Assembly (NCBI GenBank): GCA_036488585.1
Contig: DASXHH010000004.1
Location: forward strand, 65,254-129,253
Direction: 5' to 3'
Length of the DNA: 64,000 bases
Origin: Candidatus Saccharimonadia bacterium
GTDB taxonomy: Bacteria; Patescibacteriota; Saccharimonadia; UBA4664
The notes below the pieces were generated by a model that was not told the DNA's origin, ran no database searches, and worked only from the letters and a program-made list of their open reading frames with translations. Of the stretch, positions 15,060-43,121 are shown piece by piece (positions within the stretch are counted from its first letter, which is position 1; each line of letters starts with the position of its first letter). A program made the position numbers and the translations under genes.

Positions 15060-16208
15060 TCAAGCATTTCGGCGCTTGAGGCCGGCGATGGCCAAGAGTG
15101 TGAACACTACGGTGAACACCGCGAGTATGGTCACATTGAGCCAGACTCGGTCAACTCCCCAGCCGCGCAACATAACATCACGCAGCGCATCTATGCTCCA
15201 CGTAGGCGGGATGAGGTAGCAGAATGGGCGCAGCCAGCCGGGAAGGCTGGCGACCGGTACGAAGATCCCAGATAGCAGGAACACCGGGAAAATAATGAAC
15301 GGAATAAACTGGATAGCCTGGCCCTCGCGCTGAGCAGCAGCCGATACGAGTATGCCGATGGCCTGGGCAGTAACTGCTGTGAGCACGACAAGCAGCGCGG
15401 CGACCCACAGCGGCCCGAGTACCAGGATGTGGTACACCCAGATTGCCACAGCCAGCACCAGAAAGCCCTGGACTGCGGCAATCAGGCCAAATGCTAACTC
15501 GTAGCCCAGTACAACCTCGGCTTCGGTTGCGGGCGACACGCGCAGGCGATTGAGAGTGCCGCTGGTGCGTTCACTGACAAAGGCCAGTAACGTGAGCAAT
15601 GTAGTAAACAGCATGACGGCAAAGGCCATGATTCCGGGTACAAAGTAGTCGATATAACGAGCATCTTTGGCTTTCGAAAAGGCATAACTAAGGTCGAATG
15701 CGATAGGGCTCTTGGCGCCTTGGTCTTGTGCAAGTTTAAGGGTGGCCGAGGCAAGTGATGGTATGACTACGGCTGAGAGTTGCTGATTAGTGGTATCCAA
15801 GTAAACCTGGGCGTGAGCGCCCTTGGGTGGCTGTGGAACGGCTACAGGTTTGCCGGCGACAAGTCTGACGGAGACCGATGGGCTCGACTCGGCGGTGAAA
15901 TCGGGGCCGAAGATCACGGCGCCAACCGCCTTACCGTCCCGAACTTGCTGACGGGCCCAATCAGCGTCGGACGAGGAGGTGAGCTGGAGCGTATCATGAT
16001 CGATCTTATCCACCAGCTTAGTGGCGGACCCGCCCTTATCTTGGTTGACGATGATGACCGGGATGTGCTTGGGTGAATTACCAAAGGCGAAGCCAAAGAT
16101 CAACATAGCCATAACGGGTGCGAACAGCATGAGAGCGAGCGAGCGCCGGTCGTGCTTGAGGGTGAGGAACTGTTTGCGGGCGATGGCCGTGACGTGCGCG
16201 ACTTTCAC
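15060..16208 (-). CDS. ABC-2 type transporter permease
   Basis: 382 aa with an N-terminal TM, a large extracytoplasmic loop and a 5-TM ABC-2 core. Overlaps the upstream ATPase gene by 4 bp. Confidence 0.8.
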   Translation of the reverse strand: MKVAHVTAIARKQFLTLKHDRRSLALMLFAPVMAMLIFGFAFGNSPKHIPVIIVNQDKGGSATKLVDKIDHDTLQLTSSSDADWARQQVRDGKAVGAVIFGPDFTAESSPSVSVRLVAGKPVAVPQPPKGAHAQVYLDTTNQQLSAVVIPSLASATLKLAQDQGAKSPIAFDLSYAFSKAKDARYIDYFVPGIMAFAVMLFTTLLTLLAFVSERTSGTLNRLRVSPATEAEVVLGYELAFGLIAAVQGFLVLAVAIWVYHILVLGPLWVAALLVVLTAVTAQAIGILVSAAAQREGQAIQFIPFIIFPVFLLSGIFVPVASLPGWLRPFCYLIPPTWSIDALRDVMLRGWGVDRVWLNVTILAVFTVVFTLLAIAGLKRRNA

Positions 16209-19149: not shown

Positions 19150-20133
19150 TTAGTGGCTAATGCCTACGTTTATAGACGAAGAGGAGGAGTTGGTGATGTT
19201 GCCGGGCGTAACGGTACCGGACAAGGTGTTGCCATTAATGGTGATGCTGCCCGAGGTGGCCGACTGGGTAGAGTTACTGGTAATGGAGACGCTGGTGCTC
19301 GACGACGAATCCGATGAGAAGCTGCTGGTGCAGCGGACAATGTTGGTGGAGCCGGGACCGGTGTCGGTGATGCTGATGTTGGTCGGGCAGGGACTGGCGC
19401 TGGGTGACGGCGTGGGGCTGGGCGAGCCGCTCGGTGACGGCGTGGGTGACGGGCTGGTGGTAGAGACGGCCGTGAAGGTGTTGCCGGTGAGGCTAGCGGT
19501 GGATGTGAGCTGGGCGAGGGTGGAGCCGGTGGCCAGTGCGACCATTCCCACTGCCAAGACTAATACACCGGCGCGAATGTAGACGCCATCGAGGCGGCGC
19601 AGGCGGCGGATCTGACCGGCAGCTGCGGGCACAGAGCGCAGCAACGCGCGCAGATGCCGCAGCTCGGACAAAATTACCACTAGACCGGGAATAATGATAA
19701 GTAATACGAGCACCGCCGGATTGTGGAACAGGCCGAGCGCGCGGCCGAGCCCGGGCACTACGGTGGCCACGCGACCCACCACCAGACCAGCCGGCACTGG
19801 CTGGTCATTAACCTTATTGGCGTCGCCCTTGGTGGTGACGGTGGGGGTGCCATGTAGCCGGCCGGTGGCCACGATGCGGTGCGTGATGGTGACGCCGTGG
19901 TGGTGCGGGTCTTGGTAGGTCACCACTTGGCCAGGACGCAGGCTAGCAGCCGGCACCCGGTGCACCAGTACCAGCGCGCCCGGTGCGATGGCCGGTTTCA
20001 TGCTGGGCGTGAGTACATTGAGGGCCCGCCAGCCCAGTATGGGCGTGGTGAACATTATCACCAGGGCGCCGCATACCAGGTAGGCGGAGAGGCCAAGCCA
20101 TTTCCAGTTAAGTTGTGAGAGCCGGTGTTTCAT
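19150..20133 (-). CDS. SipW-like (S26B, archaeal/eukaryotic-type) signal peptidase I with C-terminal TM + cognate-motif + S/T/P-rich extension
   Basis: N-terminal TM, catalytic-Ser box LTPSMKP (cf. SGSMEP) and TKGDAN box. Then a second TM and ...TGSTLAQLTSTASLTGNTFTA..., followed by an SPSPTPSP linker and a Cys-containing tail. Confidence 0.75.
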   Translation of the reverse strand: MKHRLSQLNWKWLGLSAYLVCGALVIMFTTPILGWRALNVLTPSMKPAIAPGALVLVHRVPAASLRPGQVVTYQDPHHHGVTITHRIVATGRLHGTPTVTTKGDANKVNDQPVPAGLVVGRVATVVPGLGRALGLFHNPAVLVLLIIIPGLVVILSELRHLRALLRSVPAAAGQIRRLRRLDGVYIRAGVLVLAVGMVALATGSTLAQLTSTASLTGNTFTAVSTTSPSPTPSPSGSPSPTPSPSASPCPTNISITDTGPGSTNIVRCTSSFSSDSSSSTSVSITSNSTQSATSGSITINGNTLSGTVTPGNITNSSSSSINVGISH

Positions 20134-20156: not shown

Positions 20157-20780
20157 TTACGGTGTTGAACTCGGACTTGGGCTAACGCTGGGACTGATGC
20201 TTGGGCTGGGCGTAACAGTACCGGTGGTGGTGCCGGTGAAGTCGAGGCCGAAGCTGGCATTTGCGACCGTGGCGGTGGATAATGCGCTGCTATCGAGCGT
20301 AACCCAGACATCGTATTCCGTGCCGGAAGTGGACGGCGTGTTGGTGAGAGTGACGCCGCTGCCGGAGCTGAGATCGGCCAAGGAGGCGGAGTTGTCGGTG
20401 TTAGTACCGGTCTTCTCGATGTGGATTATGACCTTAGAGTCATCGAGGTTGGGTGCCGACACGTCAGCGGCGGTCTCGTTGACGGTCACAGTGGCGTCGG
20501 TGGCGTTCTTGAGCCAGAAATGCTGGTGAGCGGCAGATGTTCCGCCCTCAGTGAGCGATCCGAAGTTGAAGCCCTGAGTGCTGGTGACAAAGGTACCGGG
20601 CGTACCGGAGTTGTCGGGCGCGATCAGGATTCCCCCGCTTCCCACCGAAAAAGTGTTGCCGGTGAGCGACGCAGTGCCAACCGTCGCGGCAAAAGTGGCG
20701 CCGATGACCATGGCGCTGGTGCCGCCGATAATGGCCAGGCTGCGCGCTATTTCTAGTGAACGTTTACTTAAATGTGATTT
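20157..20780 (-). CDS. TasA/camelysin-like secreted protein with SipW-cognate class signal peptide (copy 1)
   Basis: N-terminus ...IARSLAIIGGTSAMVIGATFAATVGTASLTGNTFSVGSG matches the TasA-type pattern (LVGGGTWAAFND...ATFASG). Beta-rich body and PS-rich C-terminal tail. SD GGGGGTG 8 nt upstream. Confidence 0.6.
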   Translation of the reverse strand, partial: KSHLSKRSLEIARSLAIIGGTSAMVIGATFAATVGTASLTGNTFSVGSGGILIAPDNSGTPGTFVTSTQGFNFGSLTEGGTSAAHQHFWLKNATDATVTVNETAADVSAPNLDDSKVIIHIEKTGTNTDNSASLADLSSGSGVTLTNTPSTSGTEYDVWVTLDSSALSTATVANASFGLDFTGTTTGTVTPSPSISPSVSPSPSSTP

Positions 20781-20940
20781 CATTCATACACCCCCTTACG
20801 CTTGAGTAAAATCAACATAAGGTATCTTCGTCCGGCGGACCGGACCGAGCCACGTGCATAGTTCCGAAAGTGGACAGCTCGCTCCACCGGTGGAGACAAA
20901 AGCAGCTTGGCAAGCTCGGCTAATGGCGGCCTGCAGGCGC

Positions 20941-21954
20941 TTACTGAATTGTAGTCGTGGTCGTGTTCGAATTAGTGGCGTCGCCGCTCGACGCGCCGTT
21001 ATCGGAATTGTTAGGGGTGGTAACGTCGCCGGTGGTGGCCTGTTGGTTGGACTGGTTTACGACGGTGACGTTGGTTGAATTGTTAATGCTTACGTGGGAG
21101 TGACTATTCGAATTTACGTACGCCACACACTGGCCCTGATTCTTGAATCGCGGCGAGCCGTCGGGGTCCTTAAACTGCTGCCAGCCCCCATTTTTGCAAT
21201 CGTCAGCCGAAGTGGGCGCCGCCAGGACGGTAATAATGCCCTGTGATTTGACCGAATTGGTGGTAGTGAGAGCGTAGGTATAACCAACCGGTAGGACTGC
21301 CACGAGTATCAGCAGGGCCAAGGTACGGGGACCCATGCCATCCAAGCGGCGGGTGGAGCGGCGAGTCGGCTGGGTTTCGGTAGGCGCGAGTGTGGGCGGG
21401 CCGGCCGGAGGCTCCTGGTCAGGAGGGTCGGATTTGGATCCAGACAGGCCGGTAGGTTTGCGGGCAAGCGACCGGCGCAGCGTTTGGATTTCGCCCCAGA
21501 TCACGAGTAGGCCCGGAATAATGATGAGAGCCAGCAGTCCGAGCGGGCTGTGCAAAATGTTGGCCAATTTCCCAACCATGGGCAGGTGCAGAACCTCTCG
21601 CCCGACGATCCGGCCACCGGCAAATGGCAGATCCGCCACCGAGTTGGCGTCGCCCTTGGTGACCACCATGGGCAGGCCGTCCTTCACCGGCAGCGCCACC
21701 ACACGGTGAGTAATGGTTTGCTGCGGGTGGACGGGATCGGTGTAGGTGACGACATCGCCAGGATGTATATCGCGCAATGGCACGCGATGAATAATTACGA
21801 GGTCGCCCGGCTGAATCCCCGGCCTCATGCTGCCGGTTAGCACATCGAGGGCTTTCCAGCCGCCAATTGGCAACACTGAAGCTACTATCACAACCGCACA
21901 GGCGGCGTAAACGAGCAGGGCGAGCCATTTGGCGATGGAGGCAGCAGATTTCAT
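20941..21954 (-). CDS. SipW-like signal peptidase I, paralog 2, with long C-terminal extension
   Basis: LDVLTGSMRPGIQPGDLVI and TKGDANSV boxes, paralogous to 19150-20133. Followed by a second TM, a Pro-rich linker, a third TM and an Asn/Thr/Ser-rich tail with 2 Cys. Confidence 0.75.
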   Translation of the reverse strand: MKSAASIAKWLALLVYAACAVVIVASVLPIGGWKALDVLTGSMRPGIQPGDLVIIHRVPLRDIHPGDVVTYTDPVHPQQTITHRVVALPVKDGLPMVVTKGDANSVADLPFAGGRIVGREVLHLPMVGKLANILHSPLGLLALIIIPGLLVIWGEIQTLRRSLARKPTGLSGSKSDPPDQEPPAGPPTLAPTETQPTRRSTRRLDGMGPRTLALLILVAVLPVGYTYALTTTNSVKSQGIITVLAAPTSADDCKNGGWQQFKDPDGSPRFKNQGQCVAYVNSNSHSHVSINNSTNVTVVNQSNQQATTGDVTTPNNSDNGASSGDATNSNTTTTTIQ

Positions 21955-21978
21955 TGCGGGCGACCTAAGAGTTATTGA

Positions 21979-22536
21979 TTAGTGGCTAACGGTACCATCG
22001 CTAGTGCCGGTGAGTTGAAGCGTGAAGTCGTTCAGCGCGTTAAGCACGGGCGTAGAGGCATCGGCGGTAACCCAGGCCTCGAGGTCATTAGAAGTACTAC
22101 CGGTGTTAGCGAGGGCTCCCAGACCGGCGAGGCTCGAGTCGGAGCTGCCGCCGAGGGCGCTAAACGGAATGCTTACTGTATTACCATTAAGCATGAAGTT
22201 CATGGTTAGATGAGACTCTTCTGCACTCACGTTGGTGTTCCATGTGGTGATTTTGGCCGATAGTTTGACGCTATTGGCCGGCTCGGTTGTCTCCAAGTAA
22301 ATGTGAGTGTGGGCAACCGATGGGCTACCCGGTGCAGTACTGAATACAAAACCACTGGCGGAAGGGCCGTAGTTTACATGGTCGCTGGAAATCGACAGGT
22401 TATCGGAAACGGCTACTGCACCGGTGGCCGTCACCGCGTTGGTAGTGGTGGCTGCGAATGTAGCCCCGACGATTAGGGCGCTAGTGCCGCCAATGACAGC
22501 CACGGCGCGCGCGATTGCAAACGTTCGTACGTTCAT
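21979..22536 (-). CDS. TasA/camelysin-like secreted protein with SipW-cognate class signal peptide (copy 2)
   Basis: Start at MNVRTFAIARAVAVIGGTSALIVGATFAAT..., nearly identical in its signal region to copy 1. SD GTGAGGT upstream. The 81-codon track extension upstream of that Met looks non-coding. Confidence 0.6.
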   Translation of the reverse strand: MNVRTFAIARAVAVIGGTSALIVGATFAATTTNAVTATGAVAVSDNLSISSDHVNYGPSASGFVFSTAPGSPSVAHTHIYLETTEPANSVKLSAKITTWNTNVSAEESHLTMNFMLNGNTVSIPFSALGGSSDSSLAGLGALANTGSTSNDLEAWVTADASTPVLNALNDFTLQLTGTSDGTVSH

Positions 22537-22639
22537 AGAAACCTCACAGTTTAATGCTGTTACCATGGTAAATCGCATTAGGGATTGGCACAATAATGTT
22601 TTTACTAAGCCAAAAGTTAAGAATTTGTTAAGAACGAAT

Positions 22640-23245
22640 GAGGCGTTAAAAATGAAACCGTCCGGCTGCACGAATGGCAACCGGACGAGGGGTGGCGCGA
22701 AGCCACGATGTGGTAGAACCACGGGGTCCGAGAGTTTTCTCGGGCACTTGGACCCCGTGGATTTTGTGAACCGAAGCATTCCTTGTCACTCTGCATCGGC
22801 GCCCCTAGTGTGGGGCTAGTTTATCACGCGCCATCAGTGAATCACCCGTGTTGATCCAAAGATGGTCCTCATGCTTCTGCATGGCATGAGGCTCTCGAGG
22901 AATAATATCCTGGAGGCGTGGTCCTGCTGGCCTTCCGAGACCTTGTTCCGGGTTCCATGACAAGCTGGAACGATCCGGGGTCTTGGCAGCAGGCGGCGCG
23001 AACCTTATCGGTAATCGCTGGCGCAACGGGAGGCACTTTCGCAGCGTCTGTCTAACTTCGCAGTACAGACTCGTCGCGAACTTCACGACGATTGCGATCC
23101 CGTGTGCCGGTGCAAGCGGTCGGATTTGATGGCTATGCGCCTCGCACCGATCGCTGAGGTCCCGGATATTTCCGTGGTGTGGGCCAATGATGGGCCCCGC
23201 GGATAGGTGGCCGGGTACCTCGACTATAAATCCGCCCCTAACTAA
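22640..23245 (-). ncRNA. candidate structured non-coding RNA (possible rnpB/RNase P RNA plus 3' hairpins), ending at an intrinsic terminator
   Basis: ~600 bp with no credible ORF and multiple perfect hairpins. On the minus strand GGAAAUAUCCGGGACCUC (23156-23173) resembles the RNase P P4 5' strand GGAAAGUCCGGGCUCC. GGAACCCGGAAC (22946-22958) resembles the P4 3' strand ACAGAACCCGGCUUA. A GAAAGUGCC motif is also present. The 3' end is the hairpin GUCCGG...CCGGAC followed by UUUCAUUUUU (22645-22672). Confidence 0.3.
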
Positions 23246-23295
23246 GAAGCGAACGCGCATATGTTAACACAGTGAATAACTTATGTCAACCCTTT

Positions 23296-23841
23296 TTAGA
23301 GACCGAGAGCACCGAGCGCACTAGTAACAGGACTGAGGACGTGTTTAACGAGGTTGGGTACGGGATTTTCAAGCTTAACGTTAACTTGAGGGGTGGCCGT
23401 GGGGGTATGGGCCAGCAGAGTGGGAGCGGGAGTGGTTTCGGCGGCCAAAACCCCGGTGGTGGGAACAGGCGTGGCGGACGGGCTGGCTGGCGTGCGGGTC
23501 GCTGCGACGGCAACCCTTGTGGCAGCTGGCGCGGACGGGGTGGCGCGGGTCGTGGCTGGATGCGAAGGCTTAATTTCCGAGCTCACGGCCTTAATGCCAC
23601 CGGCCGCCACGGCCAGAGTGACCACAGCGATCGCCACCGAGCGGGCCCAGGGCGGCAAGATGTTACGCATAAACCATTTACGGTGGCGAAAGCTGGCTTG
23701 CACCCGCTGAAGATCAGGACCGGTCAGCACCGTGGCGAGCTGGTCCTTGGGCACCCTTAGCTTGGTGCCGTCCTGAAAAACGAGCAGCACCTCTCCGTCG
23801 CCTTCGATCGAGAAATTCGCCAACTGCTTCATAGATACCAT
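23296..23841 (-). CDS. hypothetical membrane-anchored protein
   Basis: 181 aa with a soluble N-terminus, one TM (SVAIAVVTLAVAAGGI), and a Pro/Thr/Ala-rich extracytoplasmic tail. Confidence 0.5.
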   Translation of the reverse strand: MVSMKQLANFSIEGDGEVLLVFQDGTKLRVPKDQLATVLTGPDLQRVQASFRHRKWFMRNILPPWARSVAIAVVTLAVAAGGIKAVSSEIKPSHPATTRATPSAPAATRVAVAATRTPASPSATPVPTTGVLAAETTPAPTLLAHTPTATPQVNVKLENPVPNLVKHVLSPVTSALGALGL

Positions 23842-23920: not shown

Positions 23921-23996
23921 GGCCCCATCGTCTAGAGGTCTAGGACAGCGGGTTTTCAGTCCGTCAACCGGGGTTCGAATCCCCGTGGGGTCACCA
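23921..23996 (+). tRNA. tRNA-Glu (anticodon UUC)
   Basis: 76 nt. Acceptor GGCCCCA/UGGGGUC + A + CCA. D-arm UCGUCUAGAGGUCUAGGAC resembles E. coli tRNA-Glu. Anticodon stem GCGGG/UCCGU with loop UUUUCAG (UUC at 34-36, U33, A37). T-arm CGGGGUUCGAAUCCCCG. Confidence 0.85.
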
Positions 23997-24117: not shown

Positions 24118-24420
24118 CTACTGTTCCACGGAACCCCGTACCGCCGGGGCCTCATTGGAATCGGCGGCGTAGCCACCAAATCCTTCATAAGGGTCCACGA
24201 CCAGCTTGGTGAGGGGCATACCGCCTGGTTTCCATGCCGGGGCGGGCACCTCAATTCCAAGTACCTCCCGCACAGAGCGGCGGCCTGCTTCTTCGGCCGC
24301 GACCGTCTCGGGATCATCTGAGTCGAAAATGCCTTCGTGCGGGTTGACCACCAATTCGGAGAGAGGCATTGCACCTTCATCTCGGGACGGCTCGCCGTGA
24401 GTATTCGTCAACTGAATCAT
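24118..24420 (-). CDS. small hypothetical protein with internal duplicated motif
   Basis: 100 aa with two copies of MPL[ST][EK]LVV[ND]P[HY]EG[IF]. Coding status is uncertain. Confidence 0.35.
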   Translation of the reverse strand: MIQLTNTHGEPSRDEGAMPLSELVVNPHEGIFDSDDPETVAAEEAGRRSVREVLGIEVPAPAWKPGGMPLTKLVVDPYEGFGGYAADSNEAPAVRGSVEQ

Positions 24421-24524
24421 CTCCCTTGCTCGCTTGTGTCGCCCACTTATTTAACGATGTTTTTCAAGATAGCACCAGAGGTGCCAGCGTATTACCTCAT
24501 CGTGGATAAGGTTCCAATTCGACT

Positions 24525-25112
24525 CTACCTCAGGAACTTATAGTTGAGGTAAACGAAACTGCTACTGCCTTTACCGTGGACCTGAACTCCCTCATCAAAT
24601 TTTTGTAAGCCAACTAGCTTTAGTTTTTGTTGTACCCCTTCCGGTAGCCAATAATTACCGCTCCCAACGATAATGGGCGCAATAAACTGATGCAGCTCAT
24701 CTACTAAACCGGCCCTTATGGCCTCCGCAGCTAAGTGAGGACCGCCAATACCAATATTCATATCGGATTTTGATTTTATACGACTAATTTCTTCAGCATT
24801 GAATTCGTGCTCAATTTCAGTGTTCTTTGTAGCGGGATTGGATAACGAGGAAGAATAGACGATTTTCTTCGCCGCTCGCCAAATCTTGCCATACTCGTTT
24901 GCAGCTGAGCTTGGCCCGTCTTCTGGCCAGGTTTCCCAAGCTGCCAAGGTTTCATACATATGGCGCCCGAGCAAAAGAATACCTGTGTCTCGCTCTATGT
25001 TATTGATGAATGCATGAACCTCTTCAGTTGGTGCCGCCCATTCGAAATTACCTTCTTTATCGGCTACATATCCGTCTAATGACGTCAGCATTAAATAAGT
25101 AAGTTTTGCCAT
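24525..25112 (-). CDS. dihydrofolate reductase family protein (RibD C-terminal-domain type)
   Basis: MAKLTYLMLTSLDGYVADKEGNFEW... and ...GGPHLAAEAIRAGLVDELHQFIAPIIVGSG, typical of YwjB/YyaP-like DHFR-fold proteins. Lower-GC gene. Confidence 0.75.
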   Translation of the reverse strand: MAKLTYLMLTSLDGYVADKEGNFEWAAPTEEVHAFINNIERDTGILLLGRHMYETLAAWETWPEDGPSSAANEYGKIWRAAKKIVYSSSLSNPATKNTEIEHEFNAEEISRIKSKSDMNIGIGGPHLAAEAIRAGLVDELHQFIAPIIVGSGNYWLPEGVQQKLKLVGLQKFDEGVQVHGKGSSSFVYLNYKFLR

Positions 25113-25119
25113 AATAGTA

Positions 25120-25761
25120 TTAGAGCCTACGCGTTTTCTTCACAAAATATCGAAGGAAAGTAGGCCCCCAAGAAGTCTCTTCGGCTGAAAATTCAATGGG
25201 CGTAAAGCCTGACTTATTGAGCTTCAATTCAAGCTCGTCCTCTTGATAATCTGAGAAGTGCCTGTCGGGCCAGTTGTTCGAAACATTAGGCCGCAGGTCG
25301 TCAAAATCCCCTTTCATTACTGATATAAATGCGACGCCTCCTGCCCTAAGAACTCTATGAAAACCCTCAAGAGTCGTATCGGCATCGGCCTTAGGGATAT
25401 GTAGAAAAGAAGCATTTACCCATAGACCGTCAAAAGATTCATCGGGAAGGTCGAGGTTGCGCATATCGGCAACAAAAAACTTCCCAGAAGGACATGCACG
25501 CCTGGCGACTTCAATAAACTCCTCCGTAATGTCTGTGCCCGTTACATTGAAGCCATGATCTAACAGATATTTTGACTCCCGGCCAGTCGCACAGCCAATG
25601 TCCAATACATCTTTACCGGGCATTATCTCAATAAATCGGTCGAGCAATTGCTGGATCTCAGAACGAAGCTTGGTGTTCTGATCGGCATACTCAGCATGTA
25701 TTTGACTGTACGTTTTCTGGGTCTGTGCAATATGAGAATTTGGATCTTCCTGTTCGGCCAT
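25120..25761 (-). CDS. class I SAM-dependent methyltransferase
   Basis: Motif I VLDIGCATGRES and post-I DGLWVNASFLHIP. Lower-GC gene. Confidence 0.8.
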   Translation of the reverse strand: MAEQEDPNSHIAQTQKTYSQIHAEYADQNTKLRSEIQQLLDRFIEIMPGKDVLDIGCATGRESKYLLDHGFNVTGTDITEEFIEVARRACPSGKFFVADMRNLDLPDESFDGLWVNASFLHIPKADADTTLEGFHRVLRAGGVAFISVMKGDFDDLRPNVSNNWPDRHFSDYQEDELELKLNKSGFTPIEFSAEETSWGPTFLRYFVKKTRRL

Positions 25762-25798
25762 AGAATAAGCATATCTCCACCATGATTCTAATGCATTT

Positions 25799-26410
25799 TT
25801 ACTCGGAACTAGGCGAATGTTTTCGATACGGCTTGCGAAAACGTATTGACGGTAGCAGCACTAAAGCCGCAATCAGCGAGTCAGTTAGCAGCACATAGAA
25901 ACCGTAGGCTGAGTTTGATACGGACCACATCTTGATTGTCAGCAGCGTGGTCAAGGCAGCGAGTGCTCCCCACAAAAACGGGAAACCGCTCTCAGACTCT
26001 GGTTCTAGGTATGATTTTTTGATGGTGGGCACGGCTGCAAAGAAGTCGGCAACAATACTTAGTACTAAAGCTACAAATCCCCTTCCGGTTAATGCCCACA
26101 GGACAAGTGCAAGCAGCGAAACAGACCCGCAGAGAATGTCAAAAGTTGTCAGCTTCCAGAAAGCCTTCCTGTTCACAAAGGATGCGATGAGTACAAGTAA
26201 CGGCCCGAAGCCAATGGAGAATGTAAGTAGACTTTGCAAGCCAACATGCTGGCTAAGTTGAGCGAAGAAGCCAATCATTGGTGCAACCGCCCACAAGGCC
26301 CAAGTAACACGGTTAGGGCGATTTCGGCCCTTTAGCGTGTCATAGGCGTACTGAGCGGCACTCGCCACAGTGATTAACCCTGATAGTATTACGAACTTAT
26401 CGCTTAGCAT
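25799..26410 (-). CDS. hypothetical polytopic membrane protein
   Basis: 203 aa with ~6 predicted TM helices and no recognisable motif. Confidence 0.5.
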   Translation of the reverse strand: MLSDKFVILSGLITVASAAQYAYDTLKGRNRPNRVTWALWAVAPMIGFFAQLSQHVGLQSLLTFSIGFGPLLVLIASFVNRKAFWKLTTFDILCGSVSLLALVLWALTGRGFVALVLSIVADFFAAVPTIKKSYLEPESESGFPFLWGALAALTTLLTIKMWSVSNSAYGFYVLLTDSLIAALVLLPSIRFRKPYRKHSPSSE

Positions 26411-26451
26411 ACGATTACTATGTTACCAAACTTCTCTGCTAAAATATCCGC

Positions 26452-27012
26452 ATGGCAAACGCAATTATTCTGCATGGGCAGCCGACTAAAAAACACTACT
26501 TTGACCCAGCATTTCCGGCTAGCAGCAATTACTACTGGATACCCTGGTTGCAAAAGCAACTTATTGTTCGCGATATACCCACGGCGACACCTGACGTGCC
26601 AAATAACTGGAAGCCAGAACTAGCTGTCTGGCGTAAAGAATTCGAGCGGTACGACATTAACGAGCAGACATTGCTGGTTGGTCATAGTTGCGGGGGCGGT
26701 TTCTTAGTTCGATGGCTCAGCGAACACCAAGAAATTAAACCTGCAAAAGTCGTGCTACTAGCCCCATGGTTAAACCCTAAGAAGCTCGAAGAAACGTGGG
26801 ACTTCTTTGAATTTAATATTGATAAAAGCCTAACTGAACGTACTAATGTGACGGTCGTCTATTCTGATGATGATATGCCCCAGATACTCGACACAGTTTC
26901 ATTACTGAAACAAGTACTGCCAGAAGCTTCATTTAAAGAGCTTCATGGTCGCCGACATTTCTACGATGACGAGTGCATGGAGATCCCCGAAGTTCTGGAA
27001 CTATTAGTCTGA
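26452..27012 (+). CDS. alpha/beta-fold serine hydrolase (RBBP9/YdeN-like)
   Basis: 186 aa with LVGHSCGG nucleophile elbow (GxSxG). The size and N-terminal ILHGQP are typical of the YdeN/RBBP9 family. Confidence 0.65.
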   Translation: MANAIILHGQPTKKHYFDPAFPASSNYYWIPWLQKQLIVRDIPTATPDVPNNWKPELAVWRKEFERYDINEQTLLVGHSCGGGFLVRWLSEHQEIKPAKVVLLAPWLNPKKLEETWDFFEFNIDKSLTERTNVTVVYSDDDMPQILDTVSLLKQVLPEASFKELHGRRHFYDDECMEIPEVLELLV

Positions 27013-37514: not shown

Positions 37515-39663
37515 GTTTTACGGGTTTGGGCTTGAACGGCAGTTCGAAGCCGAATGTCGAGCCCTTACCCTCTACGCTGTTGAATATAATTGTACCATCC
37601 TGGTCTTGGATAACGCGCTTGGCCAGATATAGGCCCAGCCCGGTGCCGTCAGGCCGGACGATTTGGGCGTTTTCGGCGCGATAAAACTTAGTGAAGAGTT
37701 TTCTGCGGGCTTGTTCGGGCACACCGATGCCGGTGTCGTGAACCTCCAGATGAACCATGTCGCCGGTTTGTTTGAGGACCACTCGAACTTCGCCTTTTTG
37801 GGTGTAATAGATGGCGTTGTCGATGAAGTTCATGACCACCTGGCGAGTCTTGTTTTCGTCGATTTCCACAGGCGGGAGCGGATGATCGGGCCGGTCGAAC
37901 ACCAACTTAAGGCCCTTGCCGTCGGCATGCTGGGTGGCTTGGCGAACCTCATCTTCGATCATCTGCACCATGTCGGTGGGGGTGCGCTGGATGAGGAAAC
38001 GGCCCGCGTTAAGACGGGAGATGTTGAGCAGATCAGAAATGAGATTCACCATGCGCTCAGAGGAGTCGAAAGCGAACTGAGCAAATTCTTTTTGGCCCGG
38101 CGAGATGGGGCCGGCGTCGCCTTCAAGCATCATCGATAGGTAACCTTTGATGGTGGTAAGCGGGGTGCGGAGCTGGTGTGAGGCCATGGAAATGAACTCA
38201 TCTTTGGCCTTATCGAGCTCTTTGAGATGGCGGTTGGCGACCCGCAGGCGATTGGTAGCGTGGTCTACACGGGCCTGGAGCGATGCGTTGAAGGCCTGGA
38301 TTTCAGCGTAGGCCTTGGCGTTTAGAATTGCCACCGCTAGCTCGTTACGAATGATTTCGAGCAGCGCGATGTCTTGGTTGGAGTAGATATCACCGGAGAG
38401 TTTGTCGCCGAGGAGGAAGTAACCCACAAACTGGTCATGGGTGGACAGCATCATACTTATGCGTACGCCATGACCTTCCAGGAGACTTTTGCGCTCGCCT
38501 CCCTCGAGCTCGTCGGCCACCAGAATGCTGCGGTTAAGGCGCCGCAACTCTGGCGCCACCATGAGCCTATGCGGGAGCGGGCCGTAATGCTCGATGCGGT
38601 AGACACTGTCATTGTTAAACACAATAATCTGACCGAACTGGATGCGCAGACTATCACATAGGGTGGTGAGGGCTTTTTTGAGGATGCGATTGAGGTCGAG
38701 CTCAGAGACTAGAATCTGAGTGAAATTATTGAGAACAACCTGGGAATCATAATGGTCACGATAGAAAACTCTTTCTGTGATTCGTTCAAAGAAGCGACGA
38801 AGCTGCTGAAATGTGAGGGCGAGTATGAGCGCCATCGCCAGGTATACGAAGCTTTGAGAGACTTCCACCCTGTGTGCAGGGAACAGAACCTGCGAAATCG
38901 CAAAAATGGCAAGAACATAAATAACCGCCACAGTGGCGAGGACAAGAACAAATGCAACGGACCTAGCTACGGCTAGGCGGATGTCAAAAAGCCGGTGTTT
39001 GACTATGGCATACGATATGCCACAAACAAGAAAAAGGGTTGAAAATGGACCATAGTTTGCGAGCGTGAAGTTGTGCGCTAATAATGGCAGGATTAAGTTG
39101 GTCGTAAGCGCCACCACAAATGATGACAGGATACCAGCAATAATATAGCCGAGCCGAGCACGCGTAGAGCCTGTGGAGTGCTTGAAAGAGAACAGGAATA
39201 TCCCAAGGGCTAGTCCGAAATACGCAATAAGGTATGCGAAATACATAGGTACAGCAGGCCCAAATACTATTCCGACCCCTTGGGGAACAATAGTAATACC
39301 TTCAACTACCAGCTTAGTAGAACTTAAGCCCGACTCAACGAATGCTATTAGGGTTGCCGAAACGACGAGCCATTTTGAGGTGCGCCCTAGAATTCCCGTA
39401 AATGAAGCACTAAAGCCTAGCACGAAGAAGGCAGACAAGGCCGGGAAGACAAAAATGGCAGAATTTAATACAAGAAGAACACCAGAGCTTTGGGTAGAAT
39501 CATTGCTAAAGTAGTTTGTAACCAGCCAACCGATAACAGTAAGTACGAAACCAAAGAAGAATAGATTCGACTTATCCTGTTTGTTCTTCAGAAGAACAAA
39601 CAGCCCAATCATCAGATGAATTAGGCATATCAGAACTAGTGCTATTACGCTTACGCCCACCAT
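37483..39663 (-). CDS. multi-TM sensor histidine kinase (7TM-type sensor + GAF-like + HisKA + HATPase_c)
   Basis: About 7 N-terminal TM helices and a central region. H-box SMASHQLRTPLTTIKGY. NAIYYT, DTGIGV and GTGLGL boxes. Confidence 0.85.
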   Translation of the reverse strand: MVGVSVIALVLICLIHLMIGLFVLLKNKQDKSNLFFFGFVLTVIGWLVTNYFSNDSTQSSGVLLVLNSAIFVFPALSAFFVLGFSASFTGILGRTSKWLVVSATLIAFVESGLSSTKLVVEGITIVPQGVGIVFGPAVPMYFAYLIAYFGLALGIFLFSFKHSTGSTRARLGYIIAGILSSFVVALTTNLILPLLAHNFTLANYGPFSTLFLVCGISYAIVKHRLFDIRLAVARSVAFVLVLATVAVIYVLAIFAISQVLFPAHRVEVSQSFVYLAMALILALTFQQLRRFFERITERVFYRDHYDSQVVLNNFTQILVSELDLNRILKKALTTLCDSLRIQFGQIIVFNNDSVYRIEHYGPLPHRLMVAPELRRLNRSILVADELEGGERKSLLEGHGVRISMMLSTHDQFVGYFLLGDKLSGDIYSNQDIALLEIIRNELAVAILNAKAYAEIQAFNASLQARVDHATNRLRVANRHLKELDKAKDEFISMASHQLRTPLTTIKGYLSMMLEGDAGPISPGQKEFAQFAFDSSERMVNLISDLLNISRLNAGRFLIQRTPTDMVQMIEDEVRQATQHADGKGLKLVFDRPDHPLPPVEIDENKTRQVVMNFIDNAIYYTQKGEVRVVLKQTGDMVHLEVHDTGIGVPEQARRKLFTKFYRAENAQIVRPDGTGLGLYLAKRVIQDQDGTIIFNSVEGKGSTFGFELPFKPKPVKHEDTKHAQSH

Positions 39664-39709
39664 TGGTTATAGTATATATCAAAGAGCTTGTGCTTGTTGT
39701 GGTACCTCG

Positions 39710-40606
39710 CTAACCAAGGTCCATGGGGTCATGTAGCCGTAATGCATTTAGCAGGAGTGCCTTGAATAGCGTTGCATGATGGTGCAGAAAGGGCCATCTG
39801 ATTAACCGGCTCGTACGTTCTTTCACGTCAATATGGAGGACTGCTGGTGCAGGAGGCTGAACTTTGAACCCAACAAGAAGCCCAAGAACGAGTGTGGCGG
39901 TCATTGAAGCACAGAGATCAACGGCAGGAGCGATTGCCGGCGCTTCAATACTCCCGTCTGATACCGCCCGCAATACTTGAAGATCGCCATAGCTCGGGAT
40001 ATGGGGCAGCCAACGCCACAGGTTAACTTTCGCATTCCCTGAGTTGAATTGCTCCAAGTTTATATCTTTTGATAAACCCAGATATCTTTCATAGGCATAC
40101 CCAACTGGATCAAACCAAGTTACCGTTGCACCAAAACCAATTTCTACTCCCATAACTAGCGCAATCTTCTTATCTCGTGCCAATCGGGCAAGTTGTATGC
40201 CAAGCTGAGGAAGTTTGAAGTCTATTGCCTCAATAATGAGGTCGCTGCCAGAGACAAAATCCCTGATATTGGAATCGTTGATTCCGATTTCGAGTAAATC
40301 AAGCTTAATCTTAGGGTTGATGTCGCGGCACAGTTTAGCAATTGTATCTGCCTTGGATTTGCCAATTGTGCTTTGGTAGCTCCCCTCTTGACGATTTAAG
40401 TTTGATATAGAAAAGACTTCAGGATCTGCAATTTTCAGATGCCCCACTCCGAGGCGCGTGAGCTCAACTGCGATTCTGCCACCGACGCCCCCCACACCTG
40501 CAATGGCTATGGTGGAGTTCCCAAGCTTGTCTTGTTGGGTTTTACTAATAAATCCAGTATTTCTGCTTAGGTGATTTTCTTCCGGTTCACGCTTCATCGA
40601 CTGCAT
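39710..40606 (-). CDS. ThiF/MoeB/HesA-family E1-like adenylyltransferase
   Basis: Rossmann P-loop IAIAGVGGVGGRIAVELTRLGVGHLKIAD. No obvious C-terminal CxxC or rhodanese domain. Confidence 0.8.
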   Translation of the reverse strand: MQSMKREPEENHLSRNTGFISKTQQDKLGNSTIAIAGVGGVGGRIAVELTRLGVGHLKIADPEVFSISNLNRQEGSYQSTIGKSKADTIAKLCRDINPKIKLDLLEIGINDSNIRDFVSGSDLIIEAIDFKLPQLGIQLARLARDKKIALVMGVEIGFGATVTWFDPVGYAYERYLGLSKDINLEQFNSGNAKVNLWRWLPHIPSYGDLQVLRAVSDGSIEAPAIAPAVDLCASMTATLVLGLLVGFKVQPPAPAVLHIDVKERTSRLIRWPFLHHHATLFKALLLNALRLHDPMDLG

Positions 40607-41420
40607 CTCTTAATACTTCATCGCCACGACTATAGTTTAATGCTCTCAGATGATGAGGTTTGAGATATTTAGTGGGAAGCCCCTCCAGGAAGAACCGAAT
40701 ATACTCCCGGTGAAGAAGACGCTGGGCGGGGTTAAGGCTTCTAGAGTTTGAGATCATTATATCCAGCGAGCGATCAACCTCAAGCGCGGCCGGTATGACC
40801 CTACTCCCCATATAGAAGGTTTCTTCACCTATCTGCATAAGAGCATCACGAAACAAGAACTTGAGTCGGTTGTAGTAGATCGCATCACATGCCATTAACC
40901 AAAGTTGGTGCTGAGCCCGAACCGAATGCTGCCATAATGCACGATAAATTAGGAAGCTAGCGAAGCTTGAGTAGCCTTTTCGTTTTGCTAGAGCTGAAAT
41001 CTCCACACATTGCATGGGATCTAACGATTCTATGGCTTTACGAACGTTATTTTCAAGTTTCAGCTTTTCCATGGTCGGGAAGGAAGCGTGGCCTTTCTTA
41101 CCTTTAGGGTGGATCTGCCTAGCTGTGGCGACAATTTGCTCCTCGCTACCGTTCATTTCCACGACAACAAAATATGTCGCGTGAGACTGATATGGGTCAT
41201 GCTCAACAGAGATGGTGCCATTTGCGTCTATATGGCCGGGCTCTATATATCCGTTTTCAAGATACACCTCGGCATGGAGACGCTTTGCTTGGTGAAGATG
41301 AGTTTGTTTGGTTACACGTAACACCTTCAGGTTCGGGTGCCCAGATCTCAGAAGGCGACGGTACGCGAGCATCCTTGAAATTTTTCGGATCATTAAGAGT
41401 CCTTTTGCTTGCCTTAACAT
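40587..41420 (-). CDS. GNAT-fold autoinducer-synthase / N-acyl amino acid synthase-like protein
   Basis: AKRLHAEVYLENGYIEPGHIDANGTISVEHDPYQSHATYFVVV follows the a.rLR..VY.eelg....dg.E.DeyD..a.h.l pattern of LuxI/N-acyl-amino-acid-synthase (PEP-CTERM-associated) families. Call by motif only. Confidence 0.45.
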   Translation of the reverse strand: MLRQAKGLLMIRKISRMLAYRRLLRSGHPNLKVLRVTKQTHLHQAKRLHAEVYLENGYIEPGHIDANGTISVEHDPYQSHATYFVVVEMNGSEEQIVATARQIHPKGKKGHASFPTMEKLKLENNVRKAIESLDPMQCVEISALAKRKGYSSFASFLIYRALWQHSVRAQHQLWLMACDAIYYNRLKFLFRDALMQIGEETFYMGSRVIPAALEVDRSLDIMISNSRSLNPAQRLLHREYIRFFLEGLPTKYLKPHHLRALNYSRGDEVLRDAVDEA

Positions 41421-41463
41421 GGCATTATGGTAAAAATATAGCAGCTACTAATATAAGAATGAA

Positions 41464-42135
41464 GTGATAGACACAGATCGTGCCGCTCCGAAAGTAACAT
41501 GGCTTGATTCCGATGTTGCGGCTCGGATTATCCACGCAAACTCATTATTATGCTATTGGTTATCAAAGGGAGTTGGCAATTTACTTAGCCACTCTACTCG
41601 CATTTCTCTAGACGAGGGAGATATTGACCCCAAGTCACTCTATGTTGTTGCTGCAAATCACCAGTGTCGCATTGATCCTTTTCTGATTTGTGCACAGATG
41701 CCATACTCCGCATGGAAAAGGCTCGGAGACTTCAGATACTTTCTCTACAATCCGTTATTGGACATACCCGTGTTGGGGTCTGTTTTGCGCGGACTTGGTT
41801 GCTTTCCTGCAAAATATCACACAAAGTACCCATACGGCTTAGGCTACGCCACAGAACAGCTCTCAAAAGGAAGAAGCATATTTATATTCCCCGAGGGACG
41901 CCGTACGATTCAGGGAGAATACCCCGCACACAATGGAGTGGCAGTGCTCGCAAAGCTCCCACGGGTGATGATAATCCCTGCACATATTGAATGGCGCGAT
42001 CGAGGGGCTTGGCATGGCTTTAAAATCGGCATCGGAAAGCCTTTTAACGGCAAAGACCTGACGGCACAAGAGATACTCAATAGAGTATATGAAGTTCCGG
42101 TTGATAAGCCCTTACGGATAAGAACGAGAGCTTAA
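41464..42135 (+). CDS. lysophospholipid acyltransferase (PlsC/LPLAT family)
   Basis: VVAANHQCRIDPFL (HX4D acyltransferase motif) and FPEGRRT (motif III). Confidence 0.75.
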   Translation: MIDTDRAAPKVTWLDSDVAARIIHANSLLCYWLSKGVGNLLSHSTRISLDEGDIDPKSLYVVAANHQCRIDPFLICAQMPYSAWKRLGDFRYFLYNPLLDIPVLGSVLRGLGCFPAKYHTKYPYGLGYATEQLSKGRSIFIFPEGRRTIQGEYPAHNGVAVLAKLPRVMIIPAHIEWRDRGAWHGFKIGIGKPFNGKDLTAQEILNRVYEVPVDKPLRIRTRA

Positions 42136-43121
42136 TGAATAATAGTTACCCTAACGAAGCGAGCGATATAAACCCAAAACACATTGAGCTATTGAATGCC
42201 AGCCTCCGGGCGCCCTCTGCACACAATGCGCAGCCCTGGCGAATAAAGCCAATAGACAGCCACAAATACGAATTACATTACATTCAAAGCTCTGACCTAC
42301 CAGAAGACCCAAACAATAAGGACGCGTATCTCACAATGGGTGCCTTCGTGGAGACAATGGCCTTGCAAGCTCCAAATTTTGATCTTAGTGTGAAAGTTGA
42401 GGCGGTTTTGACCCGCCATGATACGGATTTCCTCATGGCTATGGTGACAATTGACGACACGAAAGATAGCCATGCCGACCCCTTGAGTAAGTGGGTAGAC
42501 AAAAGGGTTACGAATAGAAATAGCTACCTAAAAGAAGACTTGCCGCCAGAGCTTGAAGTCAAGCTAAAGAACCTAGGAAACGTGCTATTAGATCCAAAGT
42601 TACTGAAGGGTGCTGTCCTTGAGGCTAGCATGAAGGGCTGGTCAAATAGGAGATTTGTTTCAGATTTGAAGAATTGGCTCAGAACTGATGATTCTGCACC
42701 CGATGGTCTGAGCGTGGGCCTGATGAACTTAACGGCAATAGATGTTATGGCCCTACGCTTCGCGTTCTGGAAGGGCAGCTTTAAGTCGAAGTTAATGCAG
42801 TGGGTGTTTTCTTCAAGCGAAGTGTCTATGTTTGCAACAGCCCCGAAGGTGGCAGTGCTTACTTCGCCTGGCATGACCCCCTCGGCCCTCTTTGGGGCTG
42901 GTAGAAGGTTGCTACGGTCTTGGGTAGAAATTACTTCTGCTGGTTACACCACACAACCATACTCAGTGGGAGTGGATGACGAGGCTGCGGCTCTCAAGGT
43001 GGCGGAGGTGGCCGGCGGCGGAGTACCTGTGGCACTTTACAGGATAGGTAAGCCCTCGAAGCCCTTGAGTGCCCCCTCGCACAGAAGGCCTCTTAGCGAC
43101 GTGCTCATACCACGTTCGTAG
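42135..43121 (+). CDS. nitroreductase-superfamily protein, long form (SagB-type dehydrogenase-like?)
   Basis: LRAPSAHNAQPWRIKP is the nitroreductase FMN-binding signature. At 328 aa it is much longer than classical NfsA/NfsB, closer to SagB/McbC-type or Acg-type. Confidence 0.6.
   Translation: MNNSYPNEASDINPKHIELLNASLRAPSAHNAQPWRIKPIDSHKYELHYIQSSDLPEDPNNKDAYLTMGAFVETMALQAPNFDLSVKVEAVLTRHDTDFLMAMVTIDDTKDSHADPLSKWVDKRVTNRNSYLKEDLPPELEVKLKNLGNVLLDPKLLKGAVLEASMKGWSNRRFVSDLKNWLRTDDSAPDGLSVGLMNLTAIDVMALRFAFWKGSFKSKLMQWVFSSSEVSMFATAPKVAVLTSPGMTPSALFGAGRRLLRSWVEITSAGYTTQPYSVGVDDEAAALKVAEVAGGGVPVALYRIGKPSKPLSAPSHRRPLSDVLIPRS

Follow-up and report, generated by a model that had tools for sequence, protein, structure and literature searches.

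Genomes of the Patescibacteria, or candidate phyla radiation (CPR), measure about 1 Mb and contain almost no spare DNA. What, then, fills a gap of 760 bp between two protein genes in one of them? The gap lies in a 64,000-nucleotide stretch of contig DASXHH010000004.1 from Candidatus Saccharimonadia bacterium, referred to here as the window. On its minus strand, the stop codon of g181 (23296), a gene for a small membrane protein, is separated from the start of a gene for a secreted TasA-like protein (22536). A previous sequence-only reading of this DNA had put the gap at ~750 bp, close to what we measure, and had described a highly structured, GC-rich region free of open reading frames (ORFs) and closed by an intrinsic terminator, best explained as a stable RNA gene, either rnpB (RNase P RNA) or another large non-coding RNA (ncRNA). 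Our analysis indicates that the region is probably a new, narrowly distributed, independently transcribed gene for a large structured ncRNA in a soil lineage of Saccharimonadia. Judged from its sequence, we file the RNA as a putative new family within a known kind, the large structured bacterial ncRNAs of unassigned function.

The window is 100% identical to JGI contig 3300036792 (153 kb), to Logan assembly SRR11834592, and to a protein of an NCBI metagenome-assembled genome. Neither the JGI nor the Logan gene calls for the window's contig place a gene in the gap, nor is one called in the homologous locus L085. In the NCBI record the genes on either side of the gap carry the locus tags VGH44_01115 and VGH44_01120, and because these are consecutive by our reading of the numbering used by the NCBI annotation pipeline (PGAP), nothing is annotated between them.

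Folding, covariation and distribution of the RNA

Two homologous RNAs are present in public metagenome assemblies, giving three distinct sequences including that of the window, from soil and rhizosphere metagenomes. Locus L084, together with L085, is 75% identical to the window over all 760 nt, and the seven L084-type copies are 100% identical to one another. Locus L087 has a large insertion and aligns to the window in three conserved, collinear patches. Over the RNA, the window and L084 are 83.6% identical in ungapped columns, a value on a par with that of the flanking coding genes (76-84%).

The window copy has a minimum free energy (MFE) of -268 kcal/mol, compared with -218 +/- 8 in dinucleotide shuffles (z = -6.5). 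The three homologues give z = -6.5, -6.8 and -6.3, all far below 12 coding controls of 623 nt from the same window (mean z -0.2, sd 1.35, minimum -3.6). The term "highly structured" is thus borne out, and every string and hairpin quoted in support of it is present (Table 1). "GC-rich", in contrast, holds only against the adjacent AT-rich promoter DNA and not against the genome (55-59%; window average ~57%). One coding control, at ~15200-15822 on the minus strand, was the only one below -1 (z = -3.6); judging by its predicted fold, this segment may hold a local structured element within the gene.

A consensus structure was obtained with RNAalifold from a three-way MAFFT alignment of the window, L084 and L087. 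It contains 145 pairs, and 90.3% of the paired cells are standard pairs. Compensatory change, for which the sequence-only reading had proposed looking in homologous loci, is found in these three sequences: 26 of the 145 pairs are changed on both sides, compared with 11.9 +/- 2.5 when partners are shuffled, and none of 500 shuffles reaches 26. Sliding the partners by 1-3 columns leaves only 1-7 pairs changed on both sides. A held-out comparison was made with R1, a covariance model of the 3' domain built from the window and L084 only, with 30 hand-specified pairs. R1 matches the full length of L087:1492-1650 with a score of 51 bits (E ~1e-12). Every modelled pair is kept in L087, about ten of them by double changes, and over the whole alignment the figure is 99.2% of cells. 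R2, a sequence-only model from the same alignment, did not find L087 at E<=1.

The predicted architecture consists of about 20 helices grouped into four or five domains, with long-range helices (H2, H5, H10 and H13) closing each of them. When the three homologues are folded independently by MFE, about 20 helices recur at corresponding positions, and their sequences often differ. In the 5' core, each of the three homologues forms H2, which is maintained by compensatory changes (duplex free energies, dG, of -20.9, -24.8 and -23.3). It encloses hairpin H3, near the 5' end of the RNA, where the window, L084 and L087 agree at about 30 of 36 positions and around which the helices covary. This element, which can also be written CCGCGGGGC...GCCCACACCACGGAAAU or CCGCGGGGC...CCACGGAAAU, is the most conserved sequence of the RNA and a candidate recognition site. 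Further along, H5 of domain 2 encloses H6, H7 and a conserved GCGAAAGUGCCUCC element; the helices of this domain have homologous counterparts in the independent folds, and compensatory pairs occur in consensus helices 5-11. Domain 3 corresponds to consensus helices 12-15, with six pairs changed on both sides and the same architecture in the three folds. The last helix, H21, is the terminator, in whose stem four pairs are changed on both sides across the homologues and whose U-rich tail is present in all three. The periphery varies: L087 lacks H15, and extra hairpins enlarge H16 in L084. Covarying helices, one invariant element and a variable periphery are as expected of a functional structured RNA.

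L087 also carries an extra, well-folded 5' domain of ~260 nt (L087:870-1135) that is not in the other two copies. MAFFT puts it after a short, duplicated-looking H2-like segment; an expansion domain and an insertion are both conceivable.

Table 1. Features of the g181 to TasA-like interval, in window coordinates unless a locus is given. In the numbering of the RNA, position i is window coordinate 23263-i.
Feature	Position	Strand	Remarks
g181	23296..23841	-	181 codons; single-pass membrane protein, directly upstream of the RNA
-35 hexamer TTGACA	23284..23289	-	promoter scan; starts 6 nt past the g181 stop codon
Extended -10, TGT-TAACAT	23261..23269	-	promoter scan; 17-nt spacer (ending TG) to the -35; hexamer 23266-23261
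Predicted structured ncRNA	22648..23254	-	~605 nt; putative start ~7 nt past the -10; putative 3' end in the U-tract
Homologous copies	window 23254..22648; ~L084:2125-2745; ~L087:843-1655		L087 copy 812 nt
5' hairpin H1	5' of core H2-H3	-	predicted fold
5' core, H2 enclosing H3	23156..23221	-	GAGGU(A)CCCGG (23221-23211) with CCGGGACCUC (23165-23156)
H2 across copies			window GAGGU(A)CCCGG/CCGGGACCUC; L084 GCAGUCGAGGU(G)CCCGU/ACGGGACUUCGGUCUGC; L087 GUCGGGC..GGACCU/GGGUCCGCUCGAC
Near-invariant element, hairpin H3 with ACAC internal loop	23168..23203	-	UCCGCGGGGC-N9-GCCCACACCACGGAAAU
Domain 2	22998..23155	-	H4 (23155-23115); multi-branch H5 (23108-23098 / 23031-23020); H9 (23018-22998)
Domain 3, long stem H10-H11-H12	22923..22993	-	CCUGCUGCCAAGACC... 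/ ...GGUCUCGG..CAGCAGG
Domain 4, closing helix H13 (CACGC/GCGUG)	22825..22920	-	hairpins H14, H15 (CCUCAUGC/GCAUGAGG) and H16
3' domain	22692..22816	-	hairpins H17 (GCCCC/GGGGC), H18, H19 (CCACGGGGUCC/GGACCCCGUGG) and H20 (UUCG-type loop)
H19 across copies			window CCACGGGGUCC/GGACCCCGUGG; L087 GCCAGGGAUCUGGA/UCCAGGUCUCUGGC
H20 across copies			window GUGGC/GCCAC; L084 GGCC/GGCC; L087 GCGGCA/UGCCGC
Intrinsic terminator	22648..22688	-	terminator scan; GC-rich stem of 12-13 bp (22688..22658), then UUUCAUUUUU
Separate promoter of the TasA-like gene, TTGTGC-17-TACCAT	22565..22593	-	downstream of the RNA terminator, before the ATG (22536)
151-codon ORF	22805..23260	-	covers 73% of the region; judged non-coding
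Hairpin CCACGGGGTCC/GGACCCCGTGG	22719-22732 / 22747-22760		quoted by the sequence-only reading; present
Hairpin CCTCATGC/GCATGAGG	22867-22874 / 22884-22891		as above; present
Hairpin GCCCC/GGGGC	22801-22816		as above; present
String GGAAATATCCGGGACCTC	23173..23156	-	as above; present
String GGAACCCGGAAC	22956..22945	-	as above; present
String GAAAGTGCC	23040..23032	-	as above; present

The distribution of this RNA is very narrow: three sequences. A search with the adjacent TasA-like protein led to five closer lineages, whose contigs were fetched, and searches with the second TasA-like protein (TasA2) and with g181 returned the same three RNA lineages only. The pyruvate kinase gene, which lies 3.5 kb away, assigns the window to Candidatus Saccharimonadales/Saccharimonadia, and by its identity the closest genomes are L001 (74%) and L002 (71%), neither of which resembles the window in the slot. 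In five related loci, L001, L002, L086, L088 and L142, the RNA is not in the syntenic slot, and L142, a more distant TasA locus, has no room for it. Outside these loci, a metagenome scan with the pattern CCGCGGGGN{8,18}CCCACACCACGG gave 50 matches; 48 of them are attributed to chance in GC-rich DNA, and nhmmer retained only the L084-type contigs as real. Neither nhmmer --max nor R1 found anything credible over all other loci. R1 did give a full-length match of 17 bits (rough E 0.006) at L050:31-175 on the minus strand of a Patescibacteria contig; it overlaps the start of the pyruvate kinase coding sequence on the opposite strand and is probably noise. A plasmid or phage origin was rejected, since a blastn search in "distant" mode against plasmids and phages gave no match for the region and a scan of viral contigs with the invariant motif gave 0 matches.

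The slot itself is a hot spot for accessory modules. In both L001 and L002 an RHH antitoxin and PIN toxin pair takes the place of g181 and the RNA upstream of the TasA/SipW operon (L001:5557-6184, L002:1360-1984); in L001 this slot adjoins tRNA-Glu.

Known RNA families and coding capacity

Like bacterial RNase P RNA (RF00010/RF00011), the RNA is a few hundred nt long, highly structured and apparently independently transcribed, and the sequence-only reading had pointed to two short strings resembling the strands of helix P4. These could pair in the window copy (dG -22.8). However, both strands are used in local helices. The putative 5' strand, UCCGGGACCUC, pairs with GAGGU(A)CCCGG 55 nt upstream to form H2; in its longer form, GGAAAUAUCCGGGACCUC, it is the invariant ...ACGGAAAU tail of H3 plus the 3' strand of H2. 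The putative 3' strand, GGAACCCGGAAC, is part of a local hairpin, stem H12. The proposed long-range pairing with GGAACCCGGAAC falls to a dG of -13.2 in L084 and is strong in the window copy only, and UCCGGG is not conserved, reading UUCACGGG in L084 and AAGGGUCC in L087.

Covariance searches point the same way. With Rfam 15 at the gathering score, no RNase P, transfer-messenger RNA (tmRNA), 6S or other family besides tRNA-Glu (at about 23921-23993) is found in the 64-kb window. On 22400-23400, relaxing the cutoff to E<=10 yields five noise matches, the best at 15 bits (one example is Guanidine-III on the opposite strand, whose 15 bits fall short of the gathering score of 36), and there is no RNase P, tmRNA, 6S, signal recognition particle (SRP) RNA, OLE, ROOL, GOLLD, raiA, HEARO, intron or near-threshold riboswitch among them. 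At E<=5, L084 and L087 show only tRNA-Glu and noise. The Rfam check proposed for RNase P, tmRNA (RF00023) and 6S is therefore negative even at E<=10. ARAGORN likewise reports only tRNA-Glu and no tmRNA in the window, in agreement with the previous view that tmRNA could not be supported.

RNase P is excluded because its P4 strands are locally paired or unconserved and because the match to RF00010/RF00011 fails completely. The absence of the RNA from the slot in five related genomes shows that it is not universal at this locus, but that proves little, since rnpB could lie elsewhere in those genomes. We accordingly give a divergent rnpB, or another universal RNA (tmRNA, 6S or SRP), a negligible chance: none of these families matches in the three homologues, and the putative P4 5' strand is tied up in a local helix that covaries. 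6S RNA (RF00013) was also rejected on size and shape, the RNA being three times longer and multi-branched. The earlier proposal of a stable, independently terminated, structured RNA gene thus finds support for the minus strand in a conserved promoter, a covarying terminator, covarying helices in three lineages and the lack of a conserved ORF; its identification as rnpB does not.

Guide-RNA arrays were considered as well, TIGR arrays having recently been reported from CPR bacteria (PMC12045711). Between 22400 and 23500 there are no tandem repeats except a 9-nt repeat inside g181, and only short two-copy direct repeats, so the region is not a CRISPR array. Nor are there Nop or Cas domains in the neighbouring genes. 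A CRISPR/TIGR array was rejected on these grounds and because the architecture is one of long-range helices with no repeat units.

Very few bacterial ncRNAs longer than ~400 nt are known to have complex conserved structure: the rRNAs, RNase P RNA, tmRNA, group I and II introns, OLE, GOLLD, ROOL, HEARO and raiA. Each known large structured bacterial RNA is catalytic, forms a ribonucleoprotein (RNP) or adopts a striking higher-order assembly (PMC12286853). The RNA described here resembles ROOL, GOLLD, raiA and HEARO in being large, multi-domain and covarying, with no ORF, a variable periphery and a function that cannot be deduced from context (PMC12286853, Rfam). It differs from them in that it matches no family, has no phage, prophage or insertion sequence context, and is far more narrowly distributed. 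In the searchable literature we found no described class of structured ncRNA specific to Saccharibacteria, and nothing comparable for Patescibacteria.

Could the region instead encode a protein, or be the remnant of one? Taken literally, "ORF-free" does not hold, for a 151-codon ORF covers most of the region, and a homologous 157-codon ORF has been called as a gene in L084, L139 and L141. In substance the statement that there is no plausible ORF stands, as the 151-codon ORF fails every coding test. Its codon log-likelihood is -0.175 per codon, compared with +0.16 to +0.40 for the pyruvate kinase, SipW, TasA-like and g181 genes. It has no Pfam match and, by word-indexed search, no homologue in an index of 5.8 billion proteins. 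An exhaustive phmmer search of 1.84 billion representatives returned two long multi-repeat proteins only, in 5-7 stretches at 26-28% identity, which we judge to be artefacts. Pieces of the translation match L084 in three different reading frames, no corresponding ORF exists in L087, and the RNA alignment is interrupted at scattered places by indels of 1, 4 and 5 nt. The ATG abuts the -10 hexamer, so the ORF would start upstream of the likely transcription start. For these reasons (negative codon score, no credible homologue, a frame broken in the homologues) a protein gene was rejected.

A decayed toxin-antitoxin module would fit the RHH and PIN genes found in the same slot of L001 and L002. 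However, tblastn with the RHH, PIN and other slot proteins of the relatives found no remnant in the region, and a decaying gene is not expected to show compensatory base changes. The coding remnant that the sequence-only reading had asked about was thus not found, and we regard a protein gene or pseudogene as very unlikely.

Transcription signals and flanking genes

The promoter of the RNA is a near-perfect match to the sigma-70 type. L084 and L087 share its -35 hexamer unchanged, preceded by an A-rich tract, and the -10 elements of the homologues (TGG-TATCAT and TGG-TAATAT) both lie exactly 17 nt from it. The hexamers and their spacing are kept while the spacer sequence has diverged, indicating selection on the hexamers. 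At the other end, the minus-strand terminator noted earlier is present, its stem followed by TTTCATTTTT, and in all three MFE folds it is an isolated hairpin after the stable hairpin H20. Together these motifs define a minus-strand transcription unit of ~605 nt, from ~23254 to ~22648, which with its promoter (23289..23261) is slightly larger than the region first delimited. In motif-level tests, promoter and terminator are conserved together with the RNA.

The RNA terminator lies ~45 nt upstream of a separate promoter for the TasA-like/SipW operon. We read this promoter by eye from the alignment, a simple promoter scan having failed to list it. It is conserved (TTGTGC-17-TAnCAT) in all three loci that carry the RNA (window, L084, L087) and in L086, which does not. 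The ~110-nt segment from the RNA terminator to the TasA-like ATG is 86-93% identical between the window and L084, above the flanking genes. Two repeats occur in this spacer: a direct repeat, GTTAAGAA x2, at 22616-22634 in the window (spacer 22565-22647, minus strand), and a perfect palindrome, TTGGCA-N12-TGCCAA, that overlaps the -35 of the TasA-like promoter in L084 (spacer L084:2745-2858). From its sequence and position, the palindrome is likely an operator for some regulator.

This arrangement bears on a different explanation, in which the RNA is a cis-acting leader or attenuator of the TasA-like/SipW operon, and conditional override of the terminator, whether riboswitch-like, protein-dependent or by processive antitermination, adds to the output of the operon's own promoter. 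The order of promoter, structured RNA and terminator, followed on the same strand by the operon 110 nt downstream, suits such a leader, as does the synteny of the RNA-TasA2-SipW block in three lineages. Long cis-regulatory leaders and processive-antitermination RNAs of biofilm or exopolysaccharide operons, such as the EAR element of the Bacillus eps operon, are among the closest known systems: here too the RNA is upstream of the operon (TasA-like/SipW), co-oriented with it and terminator-ended. However, the TasA-like gene has its own conserved promoter past the terminator, present even in L086, so the operon does not need the promoter of the RNA, a point against a simple leader. The operon also occurs without such a leader in L086, L088, L002 and L142. 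At 600-810 nt the RNA is several times longer than known leaders, and five to ten times longer than EAR-type leaders, from which it differs further in matching no family, in the operon's own promoter past the terminator, and in the relatives' operons that exist without the RNA. No riboswitch or leader family in Rfam matches the window, L084 or L087. Finally, the terminator folds as an isolated hairpin after H20 in the three MFE folds, and no antiterminator pairing with its 5' arm is shown, no search for one having been made. We consider a leader unlikely.

The upstream side raises a second alternative, that the RNA is a long structured 3' untranslated region (UTR) of the g181 mRNA, or is processed from it, with the promoter secondary or fortuitous. 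The RNA's own terminator is the first one downstream of the g181 stop codon, and g181 and the RNA are always inherited together. Because no terminator separates the two, read-through from g181 could also yield the RNA as a 3' extension. A perfect TTGACA and an extended -10 at exactly 17 nt in three lineages with differing spacers are, on the other hand, hard to make sense of unless they act as a promoter. Both modes could operate side by side, and a 3' UTR as the whole explanation seems to us about as unlikely as a leader.

The promoter, the polarity of the terminator and an excess of G-U over A-C pairs (29 vs 10, biased by the structure-prediction procedure) all favour the minus strand.

In all three lineages that have the RNA, the block order is tRNA-Glu (divergent), g181, RNA, TasA-like gene and SipW-type signal peptidase. 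In the window there are two tandem pairs, at 20157-22536 and 19150-20133, each of a "TasA-like" secreted protein and an archaeal/ER-type signal peptidase (SipW-like, TIGR02228) with a long C-terminal extension. The secreted proteins do not match the Pfam or NCBIfam TasA/camelysin models, and the name "TasA-like", resting on context and a signal-peptide motif only, is provisional. On the other side of g181, a 100-codon ORF at 24118-24420 (minus strand), between tRNA-Glu and a RibD_C gene, is called in both the JGI and Logan gene calls and has no precomputed Pfam, NCBIfam or PADLOC family match. GC content falls to ~45% at 24500-27000 and 39000-43000, compared with the window average of ~57%. 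The former stretch starts just past tRNA-Glu (~23921-23996) and has RibD_C and methyltransferase genes; the two stretches may be islands that were acquired horizontally beside a tRNA gene.

The g181 protein and a possible function

On the favoured reading, that of an independently transcribed structured ncRNA, RNA polymerase would start at a dedicated sigma-70-type promoter 6 nt past the g181 stop codon, and transcription of ~605 nt would end at a strong intrinsic terminator ~45 nt before the promoter of the TasA-like/SipW operon. The transcript would fold into about 20 helices with the near-invariant H3 near its 5' end, accumulate as a stable stand-alone molecule, and act as a folded scaffold or RNP and not by antisense pairing. 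The invariant H3 element might then be the binding site of a partner, for which the g181 protein is the best candidate.

Homologues of g181 are 78% (L084) and 48% (L087) identical to it. The gene and the RNA co-occur in all three loci that have either, and both are absent from five of five related TasA/SipW loci. The protein has no Pfam, NCBIfam or PADLOC family. Its most conserved part consists of a basic juxtamembrane segment (HRKWFMRNILPPWAR) and the transmembrane helix. The N-terminal domain, modelled by AlphaFold 2 (AF2) with a pLDDT of ~80, has three strands plus a helix and would be cytoplasmic, because basic residues flank the transmembrane helix. We propose that the RNA may serve as a folded scaffold for g181, with the invariant H3 element as the point of binding.

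OLE RNA, known from extremophilic or anaerobic Firmicutes, is ~600 nt long and has a membrane partner, OapA. Our RNA resembles OLE RNA (RF01071) in its length of ~600 nt, many conserved helices, an invariant single-stranded or internal-loop sequence and a narrow range, and the OLE/OapA pair in having its own transcription unit and an adjoining, co-occurring gene for a small membrane protein. The differences are as clear. There is no match in sequence or structure (no Rfam match at E<=10), the phylum here is that of the CPR Saccharimonadia, and g181, single-pass and of no known family, is not an OapA homologue. OLE family membership thus failed its test, and the comparison is one of mechanism only. 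By analogy, the ornate RNA of ~600-810 nt and g181 could form a membrane-associated RNP, an independently invented OLE-like system acting on the SipW/TasA-like fibre-secretion module. We offer this as a doubtful possibility.

Several observations weigh against these proposals. The alignment used to test the consensus structure is also the one from which that structure was predicted, although the held-out test with R1 removes this caveat for the 3' domain. The covariation statistics are weak by R-scape standards because there are only three distinct sequences (n=3), the L084-type copies all being identical. Folding energy does not decide the strand, as MFE and RNAalifold energies are equivalent on both, and the G-U excess is biased as stated. 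With no terminator between g181 and the RNA promoter, the RNA could partly or wholly be a 3' UTR of g181; its ends, its stability and its independence from the g181 mRNA are all inferred. The AF2 model of g181 has a mean pLDDT of 53 and is confident only for ~50 N-terminal residues. Its best Foldseek match in the PDB, a chromoshadow-like fold of three strands plus a helix at E = 0.15, is uninformative, none of the matches being significant, and the partnership of RNA and g181 is conjecture on our part. RNAduplex comparisons with the 5' regions of the g181, TasA-like and SipW genes were no better than shuffled, and the sites were not homologous between loci. With no antisense target among these neighbours, no function is demonstrated.

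The very narrow distribution of the RNA, three sequences, tempers its interest. Even so, the retention of a covarying RNA of 600-800 nt with a promoter of its own in a near-minimal genome speaks for a real function, and strict co-inheritance with an orphan membrane protein beside a secretion operon provides a concrete, testable hypothesis. If it is true, an RNP of this RNA and g181 might control secretion or the assembly of surface fibres for attachment to the host, in the ultra-small genome of an episymbiont.

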